Source: Bacillota bacterium
Lineage (GTDB): Bacteria; Bacillota; Dethiobacteria; DTU022; UBA8154
NCBI GenBank assembly: GCA_012518675.1
Contig: JAAYRR010000133.1
Span: 7,015 to 71,014, forward strand
Direction: 5' to 3'
DNA length: 64,000 bases
The notes beneath the pieces are model-generated. The model made no database searches and had not been told where the DNA came from. It saw nothing but the letters and a program-made list of their open reading frames with translations. A program made the position numbers and the translations under genes. Within the stretch, counting starts at the first letter, position 1. Each line of letters opens with the position of its first letter. Below, piece after piece: positions 1,981-54,852 of this stretch.

Positions 1981-2742
1981 TTAGGCCAACAGTGATAACA
2001 CCTTGTTCATAATCTCACCGGCCTCCCCTTTAATCGCCACATCAGCAATTCTATCCAAAGGTGTGGGTTCCCTGTTAACAATAGCCAACTTAGCCCCTGC
2101 ATTTTTAGCTACTTCCGGCAGGCGGGCGGCAGGATAAACAGCTAAGGAAGAACCAATGCAAAGCAAAAGCTTGCATTGTGTACATTGATGCTGGGCCTCG
2201 TTAAGCACATCTGCCGGCAGGGATTGTCCAAAAGAAACGGTGGCTGGTTTTAACAGGCCCCCACACAGGCGGCAGTTTTCTATTTCTTTTTCTTCCTCCA
2301 AAAGCTGAAAAAAATCCTCCCAGGGGGAAATATCCCCACAGGAAAGACAGCCTACTTTCCACATCGTCCCGTGTATTTCCAGCACCTTCTCCGGGCTGCT
2401 GCCTGCTGCCTGGTGCAGCTCATCAATATTTTGGGTAACAACTGCATTTACCTTACCCTTTTTTTCCATTTCGGCAATTGCCAGGTGGGCCCTATTGGGT
2501 TTTGCAGCCCTGGAAACTTTCCAGTTTTCATGGTAAAACCGCCAAAAATTGCGGCGGGTTTCAGCACTGGCAGTAAACTTCTGCAGGGTAAACTCCGCCG
2601 GGTTAAAACGATCCCAAATACCCCCCGGACTGCGGAAATCAGACAAGCCGGATTCTGTACTGATCCCTGCACCTGTAAAAACAACCATACCCCCATCGTC
2701 TATCCAACCGGCCAGCTTTTTTAATGCACCTTCATTTTCCAT
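1981..2742 (-). CDS. cobB: NAD-dependent protein deacylase, Sir2 family (sirtuin)
   Basis: GAGISTESGLSDFRSPGGIWDRF Rossmann/NAD motif. Two Cys pairs (CLSCG...CRLCGG) form the zinc ribbon, and QNIDELH is present. At 253 aa it is a typical bacterial sirtuin. Confidence 0.85.
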   Translation of the reverse strand: MENEGALKKLAGWIDDGGMVVFTGAGISTESGLSDFRSPGGIWDRFNPAEFTLQKFTASAETRRNFWRFYHENWKVSRAAKPNRAHLAIAEMEKKGKVNAVVTQNIDELHQAAGSSPEKVLEIHGTMWKVGCLSCGDISPWEDFFQLLEEEKEIENCRLCGGLLKPATVSFGQSLPADVLNEAQHQCTQCKLLLCIGSSLAVYPAARLPEVAKNAGAKLAIVNREPTPLDRIADVAIKGEAGEIMNKVLSLLA

Positions 2743-6875: not shown

Positions 6876-7272
6876 GTCCTGGTTTCGATAGTACATTTTT
6901 GCACAGTTCGTCCTTCTATTTTTACCCTTGCAGCCGGTAAAGTTTTCTGTTTCCTGCCTTCTTTTTTGCCGGCCCGGGTTCTTACCCCGGCAAAAGGGGA
7001 AAAAATCTTTTTTTTATAATGGATACTATACTTTTAAAATATTATTGCATGTTTCATTGTTGCAAATATTTTTAAGAAAATTTCAAAACCGAATGTTTAC
7101 TTGAAACATTAGGGAAAAATTTTGTAGGCACAGAACCCTTTCCGTTTAGCTCTGCATCGCATTCCAGAAGAAATTAACTATAATTGGCATCTATTTTGCA
7201 TTATTAAATTGTTAATTTTACCAGAAAAATGAGTACCCTGGAAATTATTGTTTTAAGAACAGGAGGAAAATA

Positions 7273-17564: not shown

Positions 17565-17876
17565 TTATGCCGGTTGCCTTAAGCCCCAGAAAATTAAAGC
17601 AACCCCCAGATAAATGAAAAACATTTTATGAAAATTTACCTTCCGGGCCAGTCCGCTTAAACCCAGATACATTGCACCTAAAAAAATTAAAGGCCCAAGG
17701 GAGGCCAATAACGCGTTGATTTTTAAAGCATATTCCAAGCTATTAAACCTGTAGATCAAAAGGGCAGCCAAAACTTCAATACCCCCGGATAGCAGGCGCA
17801 GCAAAACAATACCCAATAATAATGAAGAAACCATCATTTCACCCCCCGGATTTTTCAAACCCTGTAAAAACACCAA
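17565..17876 (-). CDS. Small membrane protein, DUF2619/YqhV-like
   Basis: 103 aa with three hydrophobic helices; similar to Bacillus YqhV as I recall it. Confidence 0.5.
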   Translation of the reverse strand: MVFLQGLKNPGGEMMVSSLLLGIVLLRLLSGGIEVLAALLIYRFNSLEYALKINALLASLGPLIFLGAMYLGLSGLARKVNFHKMFFIYLGVALIFWGLRQPA

Positions 17877-32331: not shown

Positions 32332-32415
32332 TTTTGGGGTTTAGGTTTGGGTTTTGGGTTTTGGGGTTTGGGTTTTTGGGGTTTTGGGGTTTGGGTTTGG
32401 GGGCTTGGGGTGGGG
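32332..32415 (+). repeat. Telomere-like G/T microsatellite, about 12 units of T3-5G3-5 (TTTTGGGG/TTTGGG)
   Basis: Direct reading: TTTTGGGGTTTAGGTTTGGGTTTTGGGTTTTGGGGTTTGGGTTTTTGGGGTTTTGGGGTTTGGGTTTGGGGGCTTGGGGTGGGG. It is intergenic between gatB and the tRNA. A G-quadruplex could form on the + strand and an i-motif on the - strand. Confidence 0.85.
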
Positions 32416-32692: not shown

Positions 32693-32778
32693 GCCCGAGT
32701 GTCGGAACCGGCAGACGAGACGGTCTCAAAAACCGTTGTCCTTTGGACGTGTGAGTTCGAGTCTCACCTCGGGCACCA
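32693..32778 (+). tRNA. tRNA-Leu (anticodon CAA), class II with long variable arm, CCA encoded
   Basis: Acceptor stem GCCCGAG/CTCGGGC. Anticodon stem ACGGT/ACCGT with loop CUCAAAA (U33, CAA, A37). T-arm GTGAG-TTCGAGT-CTCAC. 3' ACCA. Confidence 0.8.
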
Positions 32779-33199: not shown

Positions 33200-34015
33200 T
33201 TAGCGTTGTATTTCAAGCCAATCCTTATCTTCTTTTTCCAGCTTACCAAGCAGATACGGGTTTAAAACCCTTAAATAGGTTCCCTTCATACCCAAAGAAT
33301 GGGTTTCAATTACGCCTGCACTTTTAAGTTTTCGCAAGGCATTAACAATTACCGACCTGGTAATATTCAATTTATCAGCAACCTTACTGGTCACAATCAG
33401 GCCCTCATTTGCTTCTAATTCTTTAAATACCCGGACCGCTGCTTCCAATTCAGAATACGACAGCGCCCCTATCGCTTGCTGTACGGCAGCCTTGTTTCTG
33501 ATTTTTTCTTCGGTTATTCCTGATTCTAAATTTAAGATTTCTATGCCTGCAACAGTAGCCACTGTCTCCGCAAGAATCAAATCACCTGTATCAAAAGGTT
33601 TGTGGGGACGAATTAAAATAAGAACCCCCAACCTTTTATTGCGGCCCAAAATAGGAACAAAGGTGGTAAATATATTTTTAAAAATACATGTTTCCGCCCT
33701 GTTAAAAATACATTTGTTATTACTTTGCGCCAAGTTTACCTTGCCCCGGCCTTCCAAGCCATACAACATAGGGTCTTGAAAGTTTTCCGGAAACTGTCCT
33801 TTCTTTAAGAAACCGTCCATCAGCCCACAACTGTATTCATTTACAAGTGCATACCGTAAAATTTTGCCTTCGGTATCAGTAATATATACGTTAGCATGAA
33901 TTACATTTTTTAAAACCTTGATTACTTCAAAATGCTTCACTTTTTGTTCTGTTTGCAGTGTTTTACGAATAAAACGAGTCTTTTCCAGCAAAGAAGAATT
34001 AATCACTTTTACCAC
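33200..34015 (-). CDS. CodY-family GAF/wHTH transcriptional regulator, paralog 1
   Basis: The C-terminal 100 aa is nearly identical to the B. subtilis CodY HTH region (ADKLNITRSVIVNALRKLKSAGVIETHSLGMKGTYLRVLN). ILAETVATVAGIEIL and AVQQAIGALSYSELEA are also present. The N-terminal GAF portion is diverged. Confidence 0.8.
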   Translation of the reverse strand: MVKVINSSLLEKTRFIRKTLQTEQKVKHFEVIKVLKNVIHANVYITDTEGKILRYALVNEYSCGLMDGFLKKGQFPENFQDPMLYGLEGRGKVNLAQSNNKCIFNRAETCIFKNIFTTFVPILGRNKRLGVLILIRPHKPFDTGDLILAETVATVAGIEILNLESGITEEKIRNKAAVQQAIGALSYSELEAAVRVFKELEANEGLIVTSKVADKLNITRSVIVNALRKLKSAGVIETHSLGMKGTYLRVLNPYLLGKLEKEDKDWLEIQR

Positions 34016-34146
34016 CTCACTTTTTTTCTATATAAGGGTAATTTTTGTTAAAGGGACCTCCTTTTTGCCAAAAGAGCTGGAAGGAAGAACAAAAACAGAG
34101 GCCCCTGTAACAAAATAAGGGATCTTTCTGACAAATAACTGTAAAA

Positions 34147-35730
34147 TTATTCTACCTTCTCACCAATTTTACGTAATTTAAACCGCTGTATTTTCCCGGT
34201 TGCACTCTTGGGCAGTTCAGAAACAATTTCTACAAAGCGGGGGTATTTAAATTTGGCCAACCGATCCAAGGACCACTGTTTGAGTTCGTTTATTAGTTCA
34301 TCCGAACCGGTAAAGCCTTCCTTAAGTACCACAAAAGCTTTGGGTTTAATTAAATTTTTATGATCAGGGTACCCGATCACTGCACATTCCAGCACCGCAG
34401 GATGTTCAATCAGGCAACCTTCCACTTCTACCGGTGAAACCCAGATACCGCCAACTTTCAGCATGTCATCGTCCCTGCCCGCACAATGGTAATAACCATT
34501 TTCGTCTTGGTAGTAAGTGTCCCCAGTGTTCAGCCATTCACCTTGCATCGTAGAACGGGTTTTTTCCACCTTACGCCAATAATTTTGGGCAGCACTGCGG
34601 CCCTTCACATGCAGGGTTCCGATTTCGCCCTGTGGTACTTCCTTCCCTTCATTATCAACAATCCTTATTTCATACCCGGGAACAGGCTTCCCGGTTGCGC
34701 CCGGTTTAATGTCGCCAGGTCTGTTGGAAATATAGATATGCAACATTTCTGTTGAACCGATACCATCCAAAATATCGATACCAAAACGTTCCTTCCAGCG
34801 GCGGATGATATCTACCGGCAAAGCCTCACCTGCCGACACACATAATCTTACGGAAGTTAGTTCGTGATCGTTGGGATCCGCCTTGGCACCTGTTTCCTTT
34901 TCTTGGCGAGCCTTGTATTCAAGCATCTGCCCGTAGAGGGTGGGTACACCAAAGAAAATTGTAGGACGGAAACGTTCAATGTGACTAAATACACTTTCGG
35001 GAGTCGGGCGGGATTTGTTTAAAATCACTGAACCGCCTACAGCCAAGGGGAAAAACAAACCGTTCCCGATACCATAGGCAAAAAATAACCGGGCTGCTGA
35101 AAAACAGATATCATTTTCATTCATTCCCAAAACTCCCTGGGCAAAATTTTCAGAAGCAACCAGGGGGCTTTCCATACAGTGTACAGCTCCCTTGGGGGGG
35201 CCTGTTGAACCTGAACTGTAAAGCCAGAACCCTACATCGTCCTTGGTTGTTTTCACAGTTTCCAAAATAGGAGAAGCATTTTTTACCTTTTGCCTGAAGG
35301 GGATTAACGGTTCATCATCTGCAACAACAATCATATCCCTAAGGTAAAGCAGATCACCTTTAATATCATTAATCAACGGTACCAGGTCTTCCGATATAAT
35401 CAAGGCCTTGGCCCGGCTGTCGTTAAGTAAGTATTCATAATCGTTGGGTGTAAGCATGGTGTTGATTGGAATGGGCACAGCCCCAATTTTCATGGCACCG
35501 AAAAACATTACAAGAAATTGAGGTTCATCCAGCATCATGAGCATAATGCGATCATCTATACCCAAACCCATTTCACGAAAAGCGTTGCCGGTTTTATTGG
35601 CCATTTCCTGCAGTTCGCTATAAGTGTAGTTGCGCCTTTCAGTATAAATGGCAACTTTATGACCTCTTCCCTGCCGAATATTTCTATCTAAAAAATAATC
35701 TGCCGCGTTAAAAAAAGGTTGGTTTTTCAT
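34147..35730 (-). CDS. Aromatic-acid--CoA ligase, benzoate-CoA ligase family (AMP-forming), copy 1
   Basis: AMP-binding motifs WLYSSGSTGPPKGAVH and GYGxTE-like GIGSTEMLH, the C-terminal ATGKIQR, and 527 aa, typical for BCL/4-hydroxybenzoate-CoA ligases. Confidence 0.75.
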   Translation of the reverse strand: MKNQPFFNAADYFLDRNIRQGRGHKVAIYTERRNYTYSELQEMANKTGNAFREMGLGIDDRIMLMMLDEPQFLVMFFGAMKIGAVPIPINTMLTPNDYEYLLNDSRAKALIISEDLVPLINDIKGDLLYLRDMIVVADDEPLIPFRQKVKNASPILETVKTTKDDVGFWLYSSGSTGPPKGAVHCMESPLVASENFAQGVLGMNENDICFSAARLFFAYGIGNGLFFPLAVGGSVILNKSRPTPESVFSHIERFRPTIFFGVPTLYGQMLEYKARQEKETGAKADPNDHELTSVRLCVSAGEALPVDIIRRWKERFGIDILDGIGSTEMLHIYISNRPGDIKPGATGKPVPGYEIRIVDNEGKEVPQGEIGTLHVKGRSAAQNYWRKVEKTRSTMQGEWLNTGDTYYQDENGYYHCAGRDDDMLKVGGIWVSPVEVEGCLIEHPAVLECAVIGYPDHKNLIKPKAFVVLKEGFTGSDELINELKQWSLDRLAKFKYPRFVEIVSELPKSATGKIQRFKLRKIGEKVE

Positions 35731-36241
35731 TATTTATCCCCCCACTAAGTTGAATTTAATACACTAAGATTCCCAGAAAATCTTCCAGCCCTGTTTCCCT
35801 GCTCATTAAATAATTTTATATTGACAAAATACACCTTAAATTTTACATTACCCTACCCCCTCTTTGATGCTTGAAATATGTTAAAAAACTAGATATTTTT
35901 CTCAAAATTGCCTGAAAATATTTTTCTTGCGGGAAAAGGTTCACTGCTTTAAAAAATTCAAAGAGTCAAACTTCTTTTATTGTTATACCATGCAAGATAA
36001 GTACCATTAAAGTACATTTTTCTTCTAATTGCGATAGAACCGTAACCAGACCAGCCTTGATTATTCTTCCTGGCCTGCCTACCCATGTAAAATGTAGGTC
36101 ATTTTTGAAATTTAATTTTGAAAGATTGCAATATTGAAATGTATGTTAATGTTGTTTTTTTGCATTTTTTAGGGCTTTTGGAATCTTCAAACACTATTTA
36201 TTGTTCCCCTACTCGCTAATCTACAGATGCATAATGGACAT

Positions 36242-36266
36242 AAAAAAGCAGCTCCTGACGGAGCTA
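36242..36266 (-). terminator. Terminator (AGCTCC-GTCA-GGAGCT followed by T6 on the minus strand)
   Basis: Perfect 6-bp stem with a T-run, immediately downstream of the 70-aa ORF. Confidence 0.55.
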
Positions 36267-36306
36267 TCTTGGACACAATATTTTTTTTCGCTTAAATTTC
36301 CCAGCA

Positions 36307-36519
36307 CTACTCCCCGCTCATTTTTACAACGCTAATGAAAGAGTTCCCGGGGACCATTTCCCGACCACAGTTTAATTTTTCTGCTCCTGCCGCCATTTTT
36401 TTCTTTACGCCTGGCGCATCAAGTGTTTTTTCAATTTCTGAAAATTCCCTTAAAATATTGGAGAGTTTAACATCAACCAAGATCAGTTCTCTTTTCAATT
36501 TTTCAATTCTATTTAACAT
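36307..36519 (-). CDS. Hypothetical 70-aa helical protein (weak Spo0E-like resemblance)
   Basis: ORF sits between the CodY-like paralog 2 gene and a terminator. The IEKLKRELILV...SEIEKTLD pattern is reminiscent of Spo0E-family helical hairpins, but the signature is not exact. Confidence 0.35.
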   Translation of the reverse strand: MLNRIEKLKRELILVDVKLSNILREFSEIEKTLDAPGVKKKMAAGAEKLNCGREMVPGNSFISVVKMSGE

Positions 36520-36638
36520 TTTTACCCTTGCCTCCCGGATAAAAAATTATATTCTGCACATGCTTTCAATCTATTTTATAAGCCCTGGTCGGCAGTTTTT
36601 ACCACCGTTTTTGAATCCCGTAATTAATAAACGGCATG

Positions 36639-37451
36639 CTAGCGCATCCCAAGCCAATTTTTATCCTCTTTTTCCAGTCGATCCAGTAAATACGGGTTTA
36701 AGACCCTTAAATAGGTTCCTTTCATCCCCAGGGAATGAGTTTCTATTACGCCGGCACTTTTAAGCTTACGCAATGCGTTAACAATAACAGACCTGGTTAT
36801 GCTCAATTTATCTGCAACCTTGCTGGTCACAATCAAACCTTCATCTGTATCCAATTCTTTAAAAACTCGTACCGCTGCCTCCAACTCTGAATAGGACAGC
36901 GCTCCTATTGCTTGCTGCACGATCATCTTGTTTCTGATCTTCTTTTCAAGTTTTTCAGATTTTGAATTCAGAATTGACATCCCGGAAACCGTTGCCACTG
37001 TTTCAGCCAAAATTAAATCCCCGGTATCAAAAGGTTTCAGGGGACGGGTTAAAATTAGTGTTCCTATTCTTTTATTCTGGCCAATAATGGGCACCAGCGT
37101 TGTAAATATATTTTTAAAAACACAGTTTTCGGCCTGTGTAAATATGCACCTGCTAACTTCCTGTGTTAAATTTATCCTGCTTCGGTTGTCGATCCCATGC
37201 AACAGGGAATCCTGATATTTTTCAGTAAATTTGCCTTTTTTAAGGAACCTATCCAGAAGCTCACAACTGTATTCATCCACCAAGGCATGCCCCAAAATAA
37301 GACCATCGGTATCAATAATAAACACATTGGCATGAATGACGTTCTTTAAAACTTCAATTATTTCGAAGAGTTTTACCCCCTGTTCTGTTTGCAAAGTTTT
37401 GCGAATAAAGCGGGTTTTTTCCAACAAAGAAGAATTAAGCAATGTTATCAC
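36639..37451 (-). CDS. CodY-family GAF/wHTH transcriptional regulator, paralog 2
   Basis: About 75 percent identical to paralog 1. The C-terminal HTH is essentially identical, while the N-terminal GAF differs at many positions. Confidence 0.8.
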   Translation of the reverse strand: MITLLNSSLLEKTRFIRKTLQTEQGVKLFEIIEVLKNVIHANVFIIDTDGLILGHALVDEYSCELLDRFLKKGKFTEKYQDSLLHGIDNRSRINLTQEVSRCIFTQAENCVFKNIFTTLVPIIGQNKRIGTLILTRPLKPFDTGDLILAETVATVSGMSILNSKSEKLEKKIRNKMIVQQAIGALSYSELEAAVRVFKELDTDEGLIVTSKVADKLSITRSVIVNALRKLKSAGVIETHSLGMKGTYLRVLNPYLLDRLEKEDKNWLGMR

Positions 37452-37615
37452 CTCCTCAACTCCTTATGTTTATATTAAAAATAGAGGGGCCTCCTCTTTA
37501 ATGCAAACGCTGCCTAAACAAATAAAACGGAGGCCCCTGGTACCAAAAATCTGCACAATTATAAATATTTAACTATTGATATTTAACGGCTTTTGAACAA
37601 CCGTATCTTACTTGG

Positions 37616-39211
37616 TTATTTGGAAGCGGCGTCAGCCTTTTCACTTGCCAAGCGCAGTTTAAACCGCTGAATTTTGCCGGTTGCACTCTTGGGTAGTTCA
37701 GAAATAAATTCTATCCAACGCGGATACTTATATTTGGCCATCCGCTCCAGGGCAAACTGCTTCAGTTCATTGGCCAGCTCTTCAGAACCGGCCGATCCAT
37801 CCTTGAGCACAACATAAGCCTTGGGTTTAATTAAATTCTTTTCATCAGGATGCCCGATCACTGCAGATTCCAGAACAGCAGGGTGTTCAATTAAACAGGC
37901 TTCCACCTCAACCGGCGATACCCAGATACCGCCTACCTTCAGCATATCATCGCCCCTGCCGGCACAGCGGTAATAGCCTTCGTCGTCTACATAATAGCTG
38001 TCACCGGTATCAAGCCATTCCCCCCGCATTGTGGAACGGGTTTTATCTACCTTGCGCCAGTAATTCTGGGCGGCACTGCGGCCTTTTGCCAACAGCCTGC
38101 CTATTTCCCCCTGGGGAACCTCGTTCCCTTCATCATCGACAATTTTAATTTCATAACCAGGGACCGGTTTGCCGGAGGTACCGGGCCTGACATCACCGGG
38201 CAGGTTGGAAATATAGATGTGCAACATTTCTGTAGAGCCGATGCCGTCTAAAATATCTACGCCAAAACGTTCCTTCCAGCGGCGGAGAATATCTTCCGGC
38301 AGGGCTTCCCCGGCCGAAACACACATCCGTACAGAAGAAAGTTCGTGGACTTCAGGATCGGGATCTACACCCTTTTCCTTATCCTGGCGTGCCTTGTATT
38401 CAAGCATCTGCCCATACAAGGTGGGTACACCGAAGAAAAGGGTAGGCCGGAAACGTTCCAGTACGCTAAACACACTTTCGGGAGTCGGGCGGGATTTATT
38501 TAAAACCACTGATCCGCCGGCGGCCATGGGGAAAAACATGCTGTTACCGATACCGTAGGCAAAAAACAGCCGTGCTGCCGAAAAACAGATGTCATCCTCG
38601 GTTACCCCCAACACACCTTTGCCATAGTTTGTGGCGGCAACCAGCGGGCTTTCCATACAGTGCACAGCACCCTTGGGGGGGCCAGTAGAACCTGAGCTGT
38701 AAAGCCAAAATCCCACATCGTCCTTGGTTGTATATTCAGCATCCAAAATAGGAGAAGCGTTTTTGACTTTTTGTCGGAAAGGAACTTGTGGTTCATCATC
38801 AGAGACAACAATCATATCCCTGAGATAAAGAAGATCCCCTTTAATACCACTGATTAATGGTACCAGTTCTTCAGAAATTACCAGCGCCTTGGCCCGGCTG
38901 TCATTTAGCAGGTATTCATAGTCGCTAGGTGTAAGCATGGTGTTAATCGGAACAGGTACAGCACCGATTTTGATGGCACCGAAGTACATTACAAAAAATT
39001 GGGGTTCATCCAGCATCAACAGTATAATCCGGTCGCCGACTTCTAAACCCAGCTCACGGAAAGCGTTGCCTGTTTTGTTGGCCATTTCCTGAATTTCACT
39101 GTAAGTATAATTGCGCCTGTCGGTATAAATGGCAACCTTATGTCCCCTGCCCTGTCGAATGTTCCGATCTAAAAAATAATCCGCAATGTTAAAGAAAGAT
39201 TGATTTTTCAT
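37616..39211 (-). CDS. Aromatic-acid--CoA ligase, benzoate-CoA ligase family, copy 2
   Basis: About 80 percent identical to copy 1, with the same AMP-binding motifs, 531 aa. Confidence 0.75.
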   Translation of the reverse strand: MKNQSFFNIADYFLDRNIRQGRGHKVAIYTDRRNYTYSEIQEMANKTGNAFRELGLEVGDRIILLMLDEPQFFVMYFGAIKIGAVPVPINTMLTPSDYEYLLNDSRAKALVISEELVPLISGIKGDLLYLRDMIVVSDDEPQVPFRQKVKNASPILDAEYTTKDDVGFWLYSSGSTGPPKGAVHCMESPLVAATNYGKGVLGVTEDDICFSAARLFFAYGIGNSMFFPMAAGGSVVLNKSRPTPESVFSVLERFRPTLFFGVPTLYGQMLEYKARQDKEKGVDPDPEVHELSSVRMCVSAGEALPEDILRRWKERFGVDILDGIGSTEMLHIYISNLPGDVRPGTSGKPVPGYEIKIVDDEGNEVPQGEIGRLLAKGRSAAQNYWRKVDKTRSTMRGEWLDTGDSYYVDDEGYYRCAGRGDDMLKVGGIWVSPVEVEACLIEHPAVLESAVIGHPDEKNLIKPKAYVVLKDGSAGSEELANELKQFALERMAKYKYPRWIEFISELPKSATGKIQRFKLRLASEKADAASK

Positions 39212-39360
39212 GATATGATCACCCCGTAAAATTTATAATTTTTAATAGGCTTATTGCCCTCAATAAACAATACCATTAATATTTCGCAAATATTTCAGAA
39301 AATGTGAGTACTTATTTTAAAAATTACATTCATCCAACCTCCTTTTACTGGGTGGGTACC

Positions 39361-39378
39361 TTAGCTGGGGTGTGCCAA
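39361..39378 (-). promoter_or_regulatory. Candidate sigma-54 (-24/-12) promoter TTGGCAC-N5-AGCTA
   Basis: The minus strand reads TTGGCACACCCCAGCTAA, with GG-N10-GC spacing correct. It lies about 150 nt upstream of ligase copy 2 and downstream of a sigma-54 activator gene. Confidence 0.4.
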
Positions 39379-39752
39379 ATCAGTTTCCAGAACCATTTTT
39401 CTTAAGATTGCTAAAAAGATTTTTTTGCGGCAAAAAACCCACAGGTTTCAAAACTTTAAAGAGTCCCACTAATTTTAATAATTAATTATGCAAAATAGGT
39501 GCCAGTTGAAACATCTATGTTTGCCAAGTGCGACTAAACCAGCCTGCGGGGGTCTTTTGAACTGCCCGGCCGCCCTTGAAACCTGCCCAAGAATCAAATC
39601 ATTTATGAAACTTATTTTAAAATAATTGCAAAACTGAAATGCGTAAATATGCTTTATATTAAAATAAAAAAAGCAGTTCCCTGGGGAGCTGTCCTAATTT
39701 TTAAGCGGAAAACAAGGCGGGCACTGCATAGGCAGGGTAGCCCAACCTTTGC

Positions 39753-41129
39753 CTATCCTCTCAGCTTTCTGGAAAGACTGGAAAAGCTGATGCCCAGCAT
39801 TTCCGCAGCCTCTTTCTGACTTTTACTTTGTTCCATTGCTTTGGTAATCACCGCCAGTTCAAATTCCTTGGTCATCTCTTTTAACGGTGCTATATCGTGA
39901 ACTGTAAACTTATCCTCAGGTTGATGCCCTGTATAGTTAATATAGGGAGCAGGAAGATCAGCAACTGTAATCACATTTTCCTTGGCCACTATCAAGAGCC
40001 GTTCCACCAGATTAGCCAATTCTCTGATGTTGCCCGGCCAGGGATACCAGTACAAATGCTTGATTACCTCCGGGCTGATTTTTTTATTGCGAATAGCATA
40101 TTTTTGCAAGAATTTGTCTTGAAAATAGGAAATTAACATGGGTATTTCCACCTTGCGATCCCGCAAAGGGGGCACCTCTACAGGAACAACATGCAACCTG
40201 AAATACAGGTCCTCCCGAAATTTACCTTCTTCAACCATTTTTTTAAGATCCCTGTTTGTCGCCCCCACGATACGCACATCCACAGGCAATAATTCTGTAC
40301 CACCCACCCTGGATACCTTTTTATCCTGCAAAACGTTAAGTAGTTTGGGCTGAACCGCCAGCGGCAGTTCACCTATTTCATCCAGAAAAAGTGTACCCCC
40401 ATCCGCCAGTTCAAAATAGCCTTTTTTGCCCCTTTTTAGGGCACCGGTAAAGGAACCCGGTTCATAACCAAACAGTTCGGTTTCAACTAAATTTATAGGT
40501 ATGGAGGCACAGTTAATTTTAACAAAGGGGCCGGTCATGTTACGGGGACTGCGTACGTGAATAAGGTGCGCAATCAATTCCTTACCTACACCTGTTTCAC
40601 CGTGCAGCAGCACGGTGGAGTCTACCTTGCTTAAATTAACAGCCAAGTCAATTATTGCCTCCATCATGCTGCTGCCAAATACTAATTCATAATCAGAATG
40701 TTGGCCTTTAATCTGTACAATTTTGTAAGGATCCTTGAAATTCACTTTTCCGCCGGGCCGTGGCAGGGGGTTATTTTTTTTAGCCTCTAAATAGGAGGCA
40801 TAGCTTCTAATATTGCATATTACCTTATTCAATTTTCCTGCAAGATCAAAAACAGGTGCTGAGGTAGCAATCACCTTGTGGCCGGTAATACATTTGACCT
40901 CCCCGGTAACAGCACTTTTTTTTTGAATAGCCTCCAGGGCTGTAGATCTGTCGATTATTTTTTTTGCGAGTAAAACATTTAGGCTTTCATATGCAAACAT
41001 ATCCATACCCATTAAAGAGTGGATTACCGGATTACAATAAAGAAACATCCCCTGAACATCGGTAATAAAAAAACCGTCGCCGGAGTGCTCAAAAAGTTCT
41101 GCCAAATTTACGGTACCCTTTACTTTCAA
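39753..41129 (-). CDS. Sigma-54-dependent transcriptional activator with N-terminal PAS sensor and C-terminal Fis-type HTH
   Basis: AAA+ sigma-54 interaction domain (GETGVGKE Walker A, GSFTGA, ESELFGY...), C-terminal HTH (EAAEMLGISFSSLSRKL), and an N-terminal PAS-like region of about 110 aa. Confidence 0.85.
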   Translation of the reverse strand: MKVKGTVNLAELFEHSGDGFFITDVQGMFLYCNPVIHSLMGMDMFAYESLNVLLAKKIIDRSTALEAIQKKSAVTGEVKCITGHKVIATSAPVFDLAGKLNKVICNIRSYASYLEAKKNNPLPRPGGKVNFKDPYKIVQIKGQHSDYELVFGSSMMEAIIDLAVNLSKVDSTVLLHGETGVGKELIAHLIHVRSPRNMTGPFVKINCASIPINLVETELFGYEPGSFTGALKRGKKGYFELADGGTLFLDEIGELPLAVQPKLLNVLQDKKVSRVGGTELLPVDVRIVGATNRDLKKMVEEGKFREDLYFRLHVVPVEVPPLRDRKVEIPMLISYFQDKFLQKYAIRNKKISPEVIKHLYWYPWPGNIRELANLVERLLIVAKENVITVADLPAPYINYTGHQPEDKFTVHDIAPLKEMTKEFELAVITKAMEQSKSQKEAAEMLGISFSSLSRKLRG

Positions 41130-41497: not shown

Positions 41498-42901
41498 TCA
41501 TTCGATGGCGGCCTCTTCCTTGGTTTGATAGTTGTACTGCCGGTAAACATCGGCCGTTCTGTCCTGAAGATAGAGATGATCAAAGTGCCCCCGGGAATCC
41601 TTGCGCATTTTTTCATAATAAGCCCGGGCTTCCGCCTGGCAGTTGGAACAGCCCTGGATGGGGATATTTATACAGCAGACCCTGCTACTCACCTTCCGAC
41701 CAGAAGCTTCCGAGTCTATTAACAGGTAACCCGGGCAGTCACCACATACCTTTAGCGTTTCCAGCTGTGTTTCCCTAATCTGATCGGTATCATAATAAAT
41801 CTGGCGTTTTCTTTGTACCCGCGCACCCGCTTTTTGGCGGGCGGCTGCTGCCAGGCTGTGACGCTGCTGAAAAATACCGTGTAGTTCATGTACAGTTTTT
41901 TTCAGTATATTTAAACGTTCCTGTTCCTCCTGCAGATATTGTTCCCGGTAATCAGGTTCATAAAGATGGGAATAATCTATGCCGGCCATCGCCATGATAA
42001 TACCCATGTTAACATATGGGAGGGCGGTTTCAATCGAATACCCCCCTTCCAATACAGCGATATCGGGGGCAAGCTTTTCATTTAACAGGGCATATCCGCG
42101 GGCGGAAAAGGACATATTGGCCAGTGGATCGCTGTAATGATTATCCTGCCCGGCAGAATTCACAATCAGCTCCGGTTGGAATTCATCCAGCACAGGGAGC
42201 ACCAGGTTGTCCAAAACGAAAAGAATACCTTCATCGGTAGTTCCCGGAGGCAGGGGAATATTCAGTGTAGTTCCTGCTGCCAGAGGCCCGCCAATTTCGC
42301 CCTTAAAGCCGCTGCCCGGGTAAAGGGTGCGCCCGTCCTGATGAAAAGAGATAAAAAGGGTATCAGGGTCGTGCCAGTAGATATCCTGTGTACCGTCCCC
42401 ATGGTGGACATCGGTGTCTATGACAGCTACACGCCGCAGCCCATATTTTTGGCGCAGGTATTCCACCATCACCGGTTCATTGTTAATATTACAAAAACCG
42501 CGATTGCCGTGGACCACCCGCAGCGCATGGTGCCCCGGGGGCCTGATCAAGGCAAAACCATTCTTAATTTCCCGCTTCATCAGGGCATCGGCAATGACCA
42601 GCGCCCCGCCGGCGGCAATCAGGTGTGCTTCTGTGGCCTGCGTGCCGACAGTGGGCACACAAAAATGTACCCGGGCAATGTCTTTGGATGCGGCTAAACG
42701 TGGCTGGTACTGGCGAATTTGGGGAAGATCCATAATCCCTTCCTCAAAAAGCTGATCCCTGGTATAAAGAAGCCTTTCTTCCCGTTCAGGGTGAGTAGGG
42801 GAAATGGCCCAGTCGAAGGCCGGGAAAAAAACCAGGCCGGTTTGGACAGGTGGTTTTTGGGCCGGTGGGTGAACACCGCTGTTTATATTTTTCTTTTTCA
42901 T
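41498..42901 (-). CDS. Histone deacetylase/acetoin-utilisation (AcuC/Aph) family deacetylase with Cys-rich C-terminal tail
   Basis: Arginase/deacetylase-fold motifs IRPPGHHA and DTDVHHGDGTQ, plus a C-terminal segment of about 90 aa containing seven Cys (CGDCPGY...CCINIPIQGCSNC). Confidence 0.75.
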   Translation of the reverse strand: MKKKNINSGVHPPAQKPPVQTGLVFFPAFDWAISPTHPEREERLLYTRDQLFEEGIMDLPQIRQYQPRLAASKDIARVHFCVPTVGTQATEAHLIAAGGALVIADALMKREIKNGFALIRPPGHHALRVVHGNRGFCNINNEPVMVEYLRQKYGLRRVAVIDTDVHHGDGTQDIYWHDPDTLFISFHQDGRTLYPGSGFKGEIGGPLAAGTTLNIPLPPGTTDEGILFVLDNLVLPVLDEFQPELIVNSAGQDNHYSDPLANMSFSARGYALLNEKLAPDIAVLEGGYSIETALPYVNMGIIMAMAGIDYSHLYEPDYREQYLQEEQERLNILKKTVHELHGIFQQRHSLAAAARQKAGARVQRKRQIYYDTDQIRETQLETLKVCGDCPGYLLIDSEASGRKVSSRVCCINIPIQGCSNCQAEARAYYEKMRKDSRGHFDHLYLQDRTADVYRQYNYQTKEEAAIE

Positions 42902-44574
42902 GGCTGCACCCCTTTAAATTCTTCAATAACCCCGGAGGCAATCTGGACACCAACGTCAAAAAGCCTGCCAGCTGTGTCCCAACCCCGGATCATATTAAAT
43001 TGTTCTTCCAGAAAAAATTCATAGCGGTTTGCATACTTTGCAATACCCCTGCGGGCAGCAATCTCTTGCAGCTTTTCTCTAGCCAGTTCTTTAGCCTCTG
43101 TTAGCTGCCAGTCGGGGTTGAATTTACCGGTAATTCCTTCCAAATTTAAGGAATAGGTTTGTTTTTCTGTATCAGCATGCAAGAGCAAAGCAAGGGTGGG
43201 CCTGGCCACTGCAGTGCCCAAGGCGTTGGCCACCGGGGAGTAACGGTGCACCAGCGCCCGGCAACCAAGGCCAGCCGCCAAAGCAGGAACAAAAGCCCCG
43301 GCTGCAGCACCAATTCCCACCACACGTTCCGGCCCCACCTGCCGTTTATTAATGATTTCCCAAATTTTATAAGCAGGTTCCTGTTCCCAGGATTTAAACA
43401 TTTCTTCAATACCTTCCTCCAGCCTGCTGTTTATCAGTTTAACTACCCGGCGGGCAAATCCCTTTACCGTCAGCCCTGCCTGGCTGGCAACCTTTCCCAG
43501 AGCGCTGCCGGAAAGAGCCAACGGGCCCAATTTGCCGCCCCCCAAAAGGTTTACAGCATCGGTGGGGGTGGCTGCCGGACCGCCAAAACAGGCTGCAGGG
43601 CCCAAACGATCCGGGCCGATAGTTATTTTTTCGCCGTCCCACCGCAAGGTACTGTCCCCCCCTAAGGCCATTGAACGCAGGGCAAAAGAACGCACATGGG
43701 AATAACGGCCTTCAATCAAGGCTCCCCGGGAGGCATAAAGCGGTTCCCCTTCCAGGATGAGTGCCAAGTCGGTGGTGGTACCGCCAATATCCACTACTAC
43801 AGAAGTTTGCCGATCCATGGTCAGGGCAAAGGCGCCCATTACACTTGCTGCCGGGCCGGAAAAAACGGTTTCACAAGGGTAACGCAGGGAGACCTCCAAA
43901 GGCATCGTTCCCCCGTCAGCCTTGAGAATGTTGATCGGAACAGTAATCCCGCGTTCACGTATAGCTTCCTCAATTTCAGCGGCAAAACCGGCCCATTTTT
44001 CCCTGGTTACCGCAGTATAGTAAGTTGTTACCGCCCGGCGAAGAAAATTAAGCTGTCCGGAAACTTCAAAACCCCTGATTATCTCCAGGTGGGGGTAGTT
44101 TTCCTTTAAAATCCTTTCAACCTGGCGTTCCTGGCTGTTGTTACGCTGGGAGAACTTGCCAACCACCGCCACTTTACGCCGGCCGGCAGTTGCAATGAGC
44201 CTGCCAACTTCTTCAACCTGCGCTTGCTCCAGCGGTTCTATAATGCGACCACGAAAATCTGTAGCCCCCTTTAGAAAATAGGCCCCCGGAAAAAAGCCCA
44301 GGCTGTGCAAATTGAGGCCCGGGCCGGGGATAAGAATTAGCGCCACCTGTTCTCCCCCGCCCGTAGCCAAAAGGTTGGTGACCAGCGTAGTGCTAAGCAC
44401 CACCTGTTTAACCCCGCTGCCTTCTATCCCCTGCAGCAGTTCATCCAACACAGTAAAAATAGAACATTGCAGGTTGTCTGCCTGTGTCGGCTGTTTGGCA
44501 GTTTTTAAGATTTGCCCTGTGGAAAAAAGCACCCCGTCGGTAAAGGTACCCCCTACATCGATGCCAATCAGCAT
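42898..44574 (-). CDS. Hydantoinase/oxoprolinase (HyuA N-terminal) family protein
   Basis: MLIGIDVGGTFTDGVLF ASKHA-fold N-terminus, 558 aa. Overlaps the downstream deacetylase gene by 4 nt (ATGA), so probably one operon. Confidence 0.6.
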   Translation of the reverse strand: MLIGIDVGGTFTDGVLFSTGQILKTAKQPTQADNLQCSIFTVLDELLQGIEGSGVKQVVLSTTLVTNLLATGGGEQVALILIPGPGLNLHSLGFFPGAYFLKGATDFRGRIIEPLEQAQVEEVGRLIATAGRRKVAVVGKFSQRNNSQERQVERILKENYPHLEIIRGFEVSGQLNFLRRAVTTYYTAVTREKWAGFAAEIEEAIRERGITVPINILKADGGTMPLEVSLRYPCETVFSGPAASVMGAFALTMDRQTSVVVDIGGTTTDLALILEGEPLYASRGALIEGRYSHVRSFALRSMALGGDSTLRWDGEKITIGPDRLGPAACFGGPAATPTDAVNLLGGGKLGPLALSGSALGKVASQAGLTVKGFARRVVKLINSRLEEGIEEMFKSWEQEPAYKIWEIINKRQVGPERVVGIGAAAGAFVPALAAGLGCRALVHRYSPVANALGTAVARPTLALLLHADTEKQTYSLNLEGITGKFNPDWQLTEAKELAREKLQEIAARRGIAKYANRYEFFLEEQFNMIRGWDTAGRLFDVGVQIASGVIEEFKGVQP

Positions 44575-54646: not shown

Positions 54647-54852
54647 TCAGACTACAGCCCCCAGTTTTGATCTGCCTTTACAACACTGTGTTTTGGGCGG
54701 CACAAATATAGGGCGTAGCATTTTATAATCAAGTGGCTAACCGCCGTTTACATTGTATCAGCTACAGAAGCCGGCCTGGGTTTCTGCAATATTTTTGTTT
54801 TTTCCCAGACTGCCGAGCACCAGCAAAATTTTAGGAAAATTCATCTGGAAAA

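Follow-up and report, generated by a model that had tools for sequence, protein, structure and literature searches.

Tandem CodY-family regulators encoded behind benzoate-CoA-ligase-type genes in a Dethiobacteria genome: candidate local regulators of sigma-54-driven operons

CodY is usually treated as a single global sensor of branched-chain amino acids (BCAA) and guanosine triphosphate (GTP) in each Firmicute genome, and annotation follows this view. What, then, are two proteins of this family doing next to each other, each encoded behind a gene for an aryl-coenzyme A (aryl-CoA) ligase? This arrangement is found in a 64,000-nucleotide stretch of a Bacillota bacterium of the class Dethiobacteria (assembly GCA_012518675.1, contig JAAYRR010000133.1, positions 7,015 to 71,014), referred to here as the window; the two genes are termed W1 and W2, and the ligase genes that precede them ligase 1 and ligase 2. 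The answer that is put forward in this work, to which we assign a probability of roughly one in two, is that W1 and W2 are local regulators of their own sigma-54-driven ligase operons, and that they sense something other than BCAA or GTP.

Both W1 and W2 are CodY-family proteins. The Pfam models for the CodY GAF-like domain (PF06018, with 138 bits for W1 and 146 bits for W2) and for the DNA-binding domain (PF08222, HTH_CodY, with 88 and 90 bits) match over their full length, and an AlphaFold2 (AF2) model with a mean predicted local distance difference test (pLDDT) value of 77 yields query-normalised Foldseek scores (TMq) of 0.64-0.83 against full-length CodYs, the best being 5ey0_A at 0.83. 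Both proteins score above the cut-off of 255 bits of the CodY equivalog model NF003170 (W1 288 bits, W2 293 bits), and both score below that of 267 bits of the equivalog model TIGR02787 (256 and 263 bits). The clade to which they belong, described below, scores 264-305 bits on the former model and 236-286 bits on the latter, as compared to 364-396 and 334-377 bits for canonical relatives, and the NCBI pipeline labels its members ‘GTP-sensing pleiotropic transcriptional regulator CodY’. These scores open the discussion of the main rival to the reading given above, namely that W1 and W2 are a duplicated global CodY that senses BCAA, and perhaps GTP, by an unseen mode, the ligase operons being just an adjoining target. 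This explanation, which we consider unlikely, draws on the passage of the NF003170 cut-off and on the name that NCBI assigns, and is opposed by the long branch on which the clade lies and by scores that are 70-100 bits below those of canonical relatives on both CodY models.

The main clue, which lies beyond what a first-pass annotation of the sequence had remarked, is a conserved linkage of these genes to a sigma-54 activator and to a benzoate-CoA-ligase-type gene. A neighbour-joining tree groups W1, W2 and P0001-P0014/P0020 into a single clade that branches, by a long stem, from within the canonical CodYs and holds separate W1-type and W2-type lineages (the orthologous lineage of W2 being P0008/P0003/P0004/P0006), which places the duplication before several species splits. 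All eight clade loci that were checked (those of P0001, P0002 and P0006, with double modules; of P0010, P0012 and P0014, with single modules; and of P0013) carry an adjoining PAS/sigma-54 activator and a sigma-54 promoter, and seven of the eight also carry the ligase. Double modules occur in three lineages, from Dethiobacteria metagenome-assembled genomes (MAGs) and digester metagenomes, while the single modules, three in number, have the order activator, ligase, CodY-like gene, in one case with unrelated flanks. At the P0013 locus (L035) the ligase is missing between the CodY-like gene and a divergent PAS/sigma-54 activator, and a separate TGGCAC-N5-TTGCA promoter precedes the CodY-like gene at a distance of 80 nt. 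All ligase genes examined have this TGGCAC-N5-TTGCA element 265-320 nt upstream, and it is conserved at 8 loci; a further conserved block, located ~100-150 nt upstream of it, is likely to be the site of the sigma-54 activator. None of three non-clade homologues (P0017, P0107, P0204) shows linkage to activator, promoter or ligase, and P0017 lies in the context dprA-topA-trmFO-xerC-hslV-hslU-codY-rpsB-tsf; P0204, which had been considered as a look-alike of the clade on account of I109, T203 and K225, was set aside, its neighbourhood not being ligase-linked. The strict association with a sigma-54 activator and promoter would tie a global nutrient sensor to a specific signal, and is thus an argument against a merely duplicated global CodY.

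A library of representatives at 50% identity did not resolve the clade (best match 47% identity); a metagenome scan with a clade-only alignment gave, among the matches listed, only canonical CodYs at <=58% identity and no new clade loci; and literature searches on CodY paralogs, CodY-like proteins, the CodY family, and CodY together with benzoate-CoA ligase returned no account of one like it. Regarding the number of these proteins per organism, P0013 shares sequencing runs with P0002 and P0014, and some communities or genomes may hold at least three such regulators.

The two ligases score far above the TIGR02262 cut-off of 375 bits (Table 1). The best solved relatives of ligase 1 are the anthranilate-CoA ligase 4WV3 (top PDB match, 512 bits) and the benzoate-CoA ligases 2V7B and 4RLF, and the motifs FFAYG and GSTEMLHI are common to the window ligases and to 2V7B/4RLF. 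By sequence, both belong to the benzoate-CoA ligase family, an assignment that denotes a family match and not a substrate. The ligases are 81% identical to each other and W1 and W2 76%, in an ungapped alignment, indicating that a two-gene module was duplicated in tandem.

What these proteins could sense was approached through the two modes of ligand binding that are established for the family; domain boundaries and residue positions are given here in B. subtilis CodY numbering, unless another species is named. In the B. subtilis mode, BCAA are held by a salt bridge to R61, and M62, M65, F71, P72, Y75 and P99 line the pocket. Position 61 is Leu in both W1 and W2, and 4 of 11 pocket positions of this mode are identical in each. 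The first-pass annotation, which proposed that the sensor domains had diverged and respond to different effectors, had taken B. subtilis as its reference; however, Arg61 is missing in all 120 closest homologues, a set that includes the classical-locus P0017 and the CodY of Natranaerobius. Its absence is therefore a lineage trait that provides no evidence of a new effector, and the B. subtilis pocket is not a discriminating reference.

A second mode of isoleucine binding is known from C. difficile CodY, where the carboxylate is bound by K110, S130, Y42 and N40, and the amine by E104, S62 and D60, with R107 bracing E104 (PMC6353076). The corresponding 5N0L sequence was obtained with a chimeric query derived from the mutagenesis primers in S10 Table of PMC6353076. 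C. difficile CodY resembles W1 and W2 in lacking Arg61 and in carrying Asn-x-Tyr on strand beta1 (N40/Y42); N40 has its equivalent in both proteins, and Y42 in W1, the residue being Phe in W2. Its zwitterion-binding residues K110, E104 and R107, in contrast, are gone, being replaced in W1 and W2 by Ile, Ala and Cys. C. difficile K110 aligns with position 109, at which 105 of 105 canonical relatives carry Lys, and 16 of 16 clade members I/L/M/V. Hence, with Arg61 and the C. difficile-mode anchors both missing, the two known ways of anchoring an amino acid are absent in W1 and W2. Conservation of the BCAA-binding residues in both paralogs, the outcome that the first-pass annotation had named as contrary to its proposal, was thus not found in either mode, and the proposal itself holds insofar as the contacts to known effectors are lost.

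Further changes are specific to the clade. In the pocket, V65F, K109I and I110F make it more hydrophobic and bulkier; in addition, G119 is Q or R in the GGG hairpin and two residues are inserted after position 84. G50 is R or K in 13 of 16 clade members, with Gly at this position in the W2 sub-lineage, and strand pairing in the AF2 model makes position 50 the cross-strand neighbour of Tyr40. The GTP site was compared through the S. aureus contacts (the V22/F24 loop, S43, R44, R45, K47, H70, E153 and K158). W1 carries F24H, S43D, R44T, R45E and K158E, whereas W2 carries F24L, S43D, R44T, R45D, K47L and E153S; a deletion of 2 aa shortens the H1-H2 loop (GTP motif 1) of both, and several of the replacements are acidic. 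Canonical relatives keep F24 (97%), R/K44, E153 (100%) and K/R158 (100%). The loss of the invariant K109 and of the GTP contacts, being specific to the clade, weighs against a duplicated global sensor.

Two side observations concern the sensor domain in the wider family. Three cysteines (W1 C63, C102 and C110) are invariant in all 58-120 closest homologues, canonical-locus CodYs included, in columns that hold no Cys in the B. subtilis, S. aureus or C. difficile proteins; S61, E99 and R107, residues around the Ile site, are their aligned counterparts in C. difficile, and the three cysteines may be a feature, related to redox or to metals, of a large ‘Cys-type’ group of CodYs in anaerobic Firmicutes. 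In addition, among 115 full-length CodY-like cluster representatives (P0144-P0293), 10 carry R/K at the Arg61 position, 48 carry K/R at that of K109, and 57 carry neither, while many representatives in the CodY-like library match from the linker onward only. Effector diversity in this GAF-wHTH (winged helix-turn-helix) family seems much wider than the literature assumes, the alignments of its most distant members being unreliable.

The DNA-binding head presents a different picture. The recognition stretch ITRSVIVNALRKL.SAGVIE..SLGMKGTY..VLN has 34 of its 39 positions in common with B. subtilis CodY, and the string quoted in the first-pass annotation, which judged the head to be almost residue-for-residue CodY, is exact. 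This description does not extend to the DNA-binding domain as a whole, where W1 and W2 reach just 70% identity to B. subtilis (76% over residues 203-243), as compared to 89% (and 93%) for P0017, the canonical-locus protein of a related lineage, and to a reported 93% for the DNA-binding domain of C. difficile CodY. Thirteen DNA contacts taken from S. aureus and E. faecalis CodY-DNA complexes (PMC10415144) were followed: R167, S180, S182, A203, S204, T213, S215, V216, V218, R222, G236, M237 and T240. W1, W2 and nearly every clade member retain twelve of the 13 unchanged, including Ser215 and Met237, the sole base-specific contacts of CodY (PMC10415144), so that the canonical DNA-reading residues are indeed retained, as first proposed; the only change, A203 to T, affects a contact made via the main chain. 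The head is thus conserved at its DNA-contact residues, and not everywhere.

The dimerisation residues R8, Q15, E144 and T148 are likewise invariant, and these intact contact and dimerisation residues are also what a duplicated global CodY would display. The residues by which CodY dimers contact each other for cooperative binding (LSYS, R233, L235 and Y/F241) have been described as strictly conserved in all CodYs; LSYS, L235 and Y241 are kept, but R233 is His in 16 of 16 clade members, next to the other fixed clade changes of the domain, E188V, H189R, E225K and I242L. The uniform R233H change speaks for cooperative binding in a different and possibly insulated mode, and it runs counter to an unmodified global role. 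From these residues, CodY-box-like specificity with altered cooperativity is expected for the clade proteins, and the latter may insulate them from canonical CodY.

Candidate operators for such a protein are found close by. The two ligase leaders hold four CodY-box-like sites at <=3 mismatches where 0.37 are expected (P about 0.001), those of the ligase 1 leader being conserved in L016/L023 of a lineage at 88% identity, and across the window there are 19 such sites versus 7.9 expected. Terminator-like hairpins lie 3' of the activator gene and of an open reading frame (ORF) of 70 aa, while the gap between ligase and CodY-like gene has a weak hairpin only in each module; an Rfam search of the ligase leaders returned no known RNA family.

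Table 1. Features of the two ligase/CodY-like modules and of the adjoining activator gene (window coordinates, listed in the direction of transcription)
Feature	Position	Strand	Remarks
Sigma-54-dependent transcriptional activator, PAS + AAA+ + HTH_8	39753..41129	-	Pfam Sigma54_activat 217 bits, HTH_8; own terminator 3'
Conserved upstream block, module 2; candidate activator binding site	39598..39643	-	alignment of 7 ligase upstream regions
Sigma-54 promoter, module 2; perfect consensus TGGCACCTATTTTGCA	39489..39504	-	293 nt 5' of ligase 2 ATG
Ligase 2 leader, two CodY-box-like sites	39290..39409	.	39290-39304 CATTTTCTGAAATAT; 39395-39409 AATCTTAAGAAAAAT; 3 mismatches apiece
Ligase 2, benzoate-CoA ligase family	37616..39211	-	TIGR02262 658 bits; 81% identity to ligase 1
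Weak hairpin + T-run in ligase 2/W2 gap; possible attenuator or partial terminator	37483..37497	-	
W2, CodY-family regulator, W1 paralog	36639..37451	-	ORF 270 aa; probable true start TTG 37442 (267 aa)
70-aa ORF 3' of W2	36307..36519	-	in all double-module loci (69-70 aa); contains CodY-box-like AATTTTCAGAAATTG at 36432-36446
Intrinsic-terminator-like hairpin + T-run ending module 2	36249..36266	-	
Conserved upstream block CATTTCA..TTGCAAT..TTTCAAAAATGA, module 1; candidate sigma-54 activator site	36099..36143	-	alignment of 7 ligase upstream regions
Sigma-54 promoter (-24/-12), module 1, TGGTACTTATCTTGCA	35991..36006	-	1 mismatch; 276 nt 5' of ligase 1 ATG
Ligase 1 leader, two overlapping CodY-box-like sites	35895..35920	.	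AATTTTGAGAAAAAT 2 mismatches; TATTTTCAGGCAATT 3 mismatches
Ligase 1, benzoate-CoA ligase family (AMP-forming aryl-CoA ligase)	34147..35730	-	TIGR02262 645 bits
W1, CodY-family regulator: GAF + linker helix + wHTH	33200..34015	-	ORF 271 aa; probable true start GTG 34006 (268 aa)

These elements suggest a mechanism for a local regulator. Each module would consist of a sigma-54 promoter, a leader of ~265-280 nt, the ligase gene, a weak hairpin and the CodY-like gene, the promoter presumably being fired by the adjoining PAS-domain activator. W1 and W2 would still dimerise, and their unchanged recognition helix and wing would read AT-rich, CodY-box-like DNA, the best candidate operators being those within their own leaders; a dimer occupying these sites, which lie downstream of the promoter, could block elongation or promoter clearance. 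The effector could be the aromatic acid on which the ligase acts, or the CoA thioester of that acid, in which case the ligase would be under feedback control; ligand binding activates DNA binding in CodY, and product-activated feedback repression would therefore be the simplest logic. The more acidic CodY GTP site of W1 and W2 does not favour the binding of CoA phosphates at that location. The analysis shows family membership, fold, residue patterns, operon anatomy, the conservation of synteny and purifying selection; the DNA target, the identity of the effector and the sign of regulation are what we infer from these features taken together.

The comparison with known systems delineates what is retained and what is new. 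The CodY of B. subtilis and S. aureus, a global repressor activated by BCAA and GTP (5LOE, 5EY0, 8C7U), has the same GAF domain, long linker helix and wHTH as W1 and W2, which keep 12 of its 13 DNA contacts, LSYS and the dimerisation residues; they differ from it in having Leu for Arg61, replaced GTP contacts and His for Arg233, and their genes, instead of occupying the classical context xerC-hslV-hslU-codY, follow an aryl-CoA ligase gene and are placed under a sigma-54 promoter. The nearest precedent for a conserved wHTH joined to a divergent GAF domain is given by the CodY-like proteins from Synergistetes, which show ~73% identity in the wHTH and ~33% in the GAF domain, do not conserve the B. 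subtilis-type BCAA residues, and one of which binds a canonical CodY box in vitro (PMC9318921). The Synergistetes proteins are single-copy, presumed global, and track the species tree, whereas W1 and W2 are members of a derived clade inside the Firmicutes CodYs, are duplicated, and are tied to one operon type.

Local regulators that respond to acyl- or aryl-CoA and are encoded beside CoA ligase genes include BzdR/BoxR, PaaX, CouR and FadR. In these systems the regulator gene lies beside that of the CoA ligase whose product is the effector, an arrangement that follows the same logic as that of W1 and W2, although their sensor folds and families are unrelated; FadR, like CodY, dimerises with its recognition helices in one major groove. 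In the ligase-linked clade, the scaffold of a global CodY probably became a pathway-specific regulator, and ‘GTP-sensing pleiotropic transcriptional regulator CodY’ is probably a misnomer for its members.

Several points weigh against a local regulator with a new effector. Much of the hydrophobic lining of the pocket is kept (M62, F71, P72, Y75/F, F98, N38 and Y40), so that a BCAA-like ligand bound in a third mode is conceivable; a duplicated global CodY gains support from these residues, among them N38/Y40 of the C. difficile mode, and from the fact that two Ile-binding modes already exist in the family. A structure prediction of the GAF pockets, as proposed by the first-pass annotation, recovered the CodY fold and left the pocket loops at low confidence (pLDDT 57-71); the mapping onto solved structures is by sequence alignment only. 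No other aromatic-catabolic genes lie within the window. The leader sites have 2-3 mismatches in AT-rich DNA, and the leaders of L005, L013 and L017 hold no CodY-box-like site at <=3 mismatches; a clade-wide operator is for this reason not claimed.

The 64-kb window contains no third CodY gene, canonical included; a profile scan of genome contigs with W1 found one locus only, in the 88%-identity lineage; a protein search seeded with the Dethiobacteria canonical CodY P0107 yielded no close relative assignable to W-type assemblies; and the P0006/P0002 and P0107 clusters have NCBI accession series with no overlap. A canonical CodY in the same genome is thus not demonstrated by contig scan, P0107-seeded search or accession series. 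That none is found in the window or linked to these genomes would fit W1 and W2 having taken the global role themselves; against this, canonical-type CodYs are present in other Dethiobacteria MAGs.

A further explanation, which develops the idea of competition raised in the first-pass annotation, is that W1 and W2 re-tune the regulon of canonical CodY, through competition for boxes, mixed dimers or cross-dimer contacts, whenever the sigma-54 circuit is on. Identical base-reading residues, conserved dimerisation residues and the enrichment of CodY-box-like motifs in the window are compatible with such a role. It nevertheless appears quite improbable, the interface changes of the clade (G119 in the GGG loop, the H1-H2 deletion and R233H) being of a kind that insulates paralogs, the contig scan and the P0107-seeded search above having yielded no canonical CodY of the same genome, and the conserved linkage pointing to a local role.

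The comparison between the two paralogs bears on how long, and for what, they have been maintained. W1 and W2 share 70.6% of their GAF-domain residues, 66.7% of those in the linker and 94.4% of those in the wHTH (180-250); of ~65 differences, 45 fall in the GAF domain and 4 in the wHTH, in agreement with the earlier remark that they lie mostly in the sensor. Synonymous divergence (dS) is saturated along the whole gene (1.2-1.9, and 1.38 in the wHTH), while non-synonymous divergence (dN) amounts to 0.20 for the GAF domain and 0.025 for the wHTH, with a peak of 0.42 at codons 76-105, which correspond to the loops by which CodYs of solved structure close their ligand pocket; dN/dS comes to ~0.1 for the GAF domain and 0.02 for the wHTH. 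The saturation of dS across the gene indicates that the shared wHTH has been kept by purifying selection, and not by gene conversion or through an assembly artefact, and, taken with the low dN, that the duplication is old and that purifying selection acts on each copy. At least three related lineages carry this tandem pair in independent assemblies, and the pair is therefore real. Decaying or neutral duplicates, or an assembly artefact, as tandem duplication and the origin of the data from MAGs and metagenomes might suggest, can be dismissed as highly improbable in view of the intact ORFs, of dN/dS of 0.02-0.11 with saturated dS, and of both paralog lineages having been retained by three or more lineages at species level and across many independent assemblies.

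W1 and W2 differ at 8 of 18 mapped pocket positions, including 40 Y/F, 72 P/T, 99 N/T, 100 R/Q and 129 I/T, and outside this set at 50 R/G. W1, with Tyr40, Arg50 and Arg100, and W2, with Phe40, Gly50 and Gln100, thus probably read different ligands. In a more specific form, the reading of W1 and W2 as local regulators would hold that a Dethiobacteria-centred clade has re-tooled CodY as sensors of aromatic acids or aryl-CoA in a sigma-54 circuit, that the paralogs have been tuned apart (an Arg/Tyr carboxylate site in W1, none in W2), and that R233H insulates them from canonical CodY on DNA; in this full form the proposal is tentative, and on balance doubtful.

The surroundings of the modules contain further elements that could be involved in their control. 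In the aligned leaders of Dethiobacteria double modules (window, L005, L016), a minimal ATG-TAA/ATG-TAG ORF comes after a Shine-Dalgarno-like GGAGG, ~100 nt upstream of the ligase start (window ~39325-39350 and ~35845-35870, minus strand), and this start-stop ORF may be a translational control element. The 70-aa ORF has no Pfam match; the CodY-box-like motif inside it is kept across lineages, and a good terminator (36249-36266) follows it. AMP-forming ligases such as benzoate-CoA ligase are switched by lysine acetylation, and two types of deacetylase are encoded in the window: one of the histone deacetylase (HDAC) type at 41498-42901 (minus strand), translationally coupled to a hydantoinase-A-like gene at 42898-44574 and located just upstream of the activator in all Dethiobacteria loci, and a Sir2 deacetylase at 1981-2742 (minus strand). 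These enzymes may represent another layer of control on the ligases. At a distance from the modules, CodY-box matches with 2 mismatches lie at window positions 54827-54841, 7068-7082 and 17622-17636, one of them, AATTTTAGGAAAATT, between a LonC-like gene and a methyltransferase gene; a CodY-type protein of this genome might use them as targets.

As for the limits of the locus, gene callers in other assemblies place the start of W1 9 nt later, giving the 268-aa form that corresponds to P0001, and W2 is likewise called at 267 aa. Beyond W1 lie tRNA-Leu(CAA), at window 32693-32778, and then gatB on the opposite strand, with a telomere-like tandem repeat of TTTGGGG (~11 copies, 32333-32411) in the intergenic region between them, and the rest of the 64-kb window holds housekeeping genes.

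If W1 and W2 are what is proposed here, they would represent a natural experiment in which a global regulator became a local one, and would reveal the residues that set effector specificity in the CodY GAF domain. They would also constitute a new class of regulators for aryl-CoA ligases in anaerobic Firmicutes.

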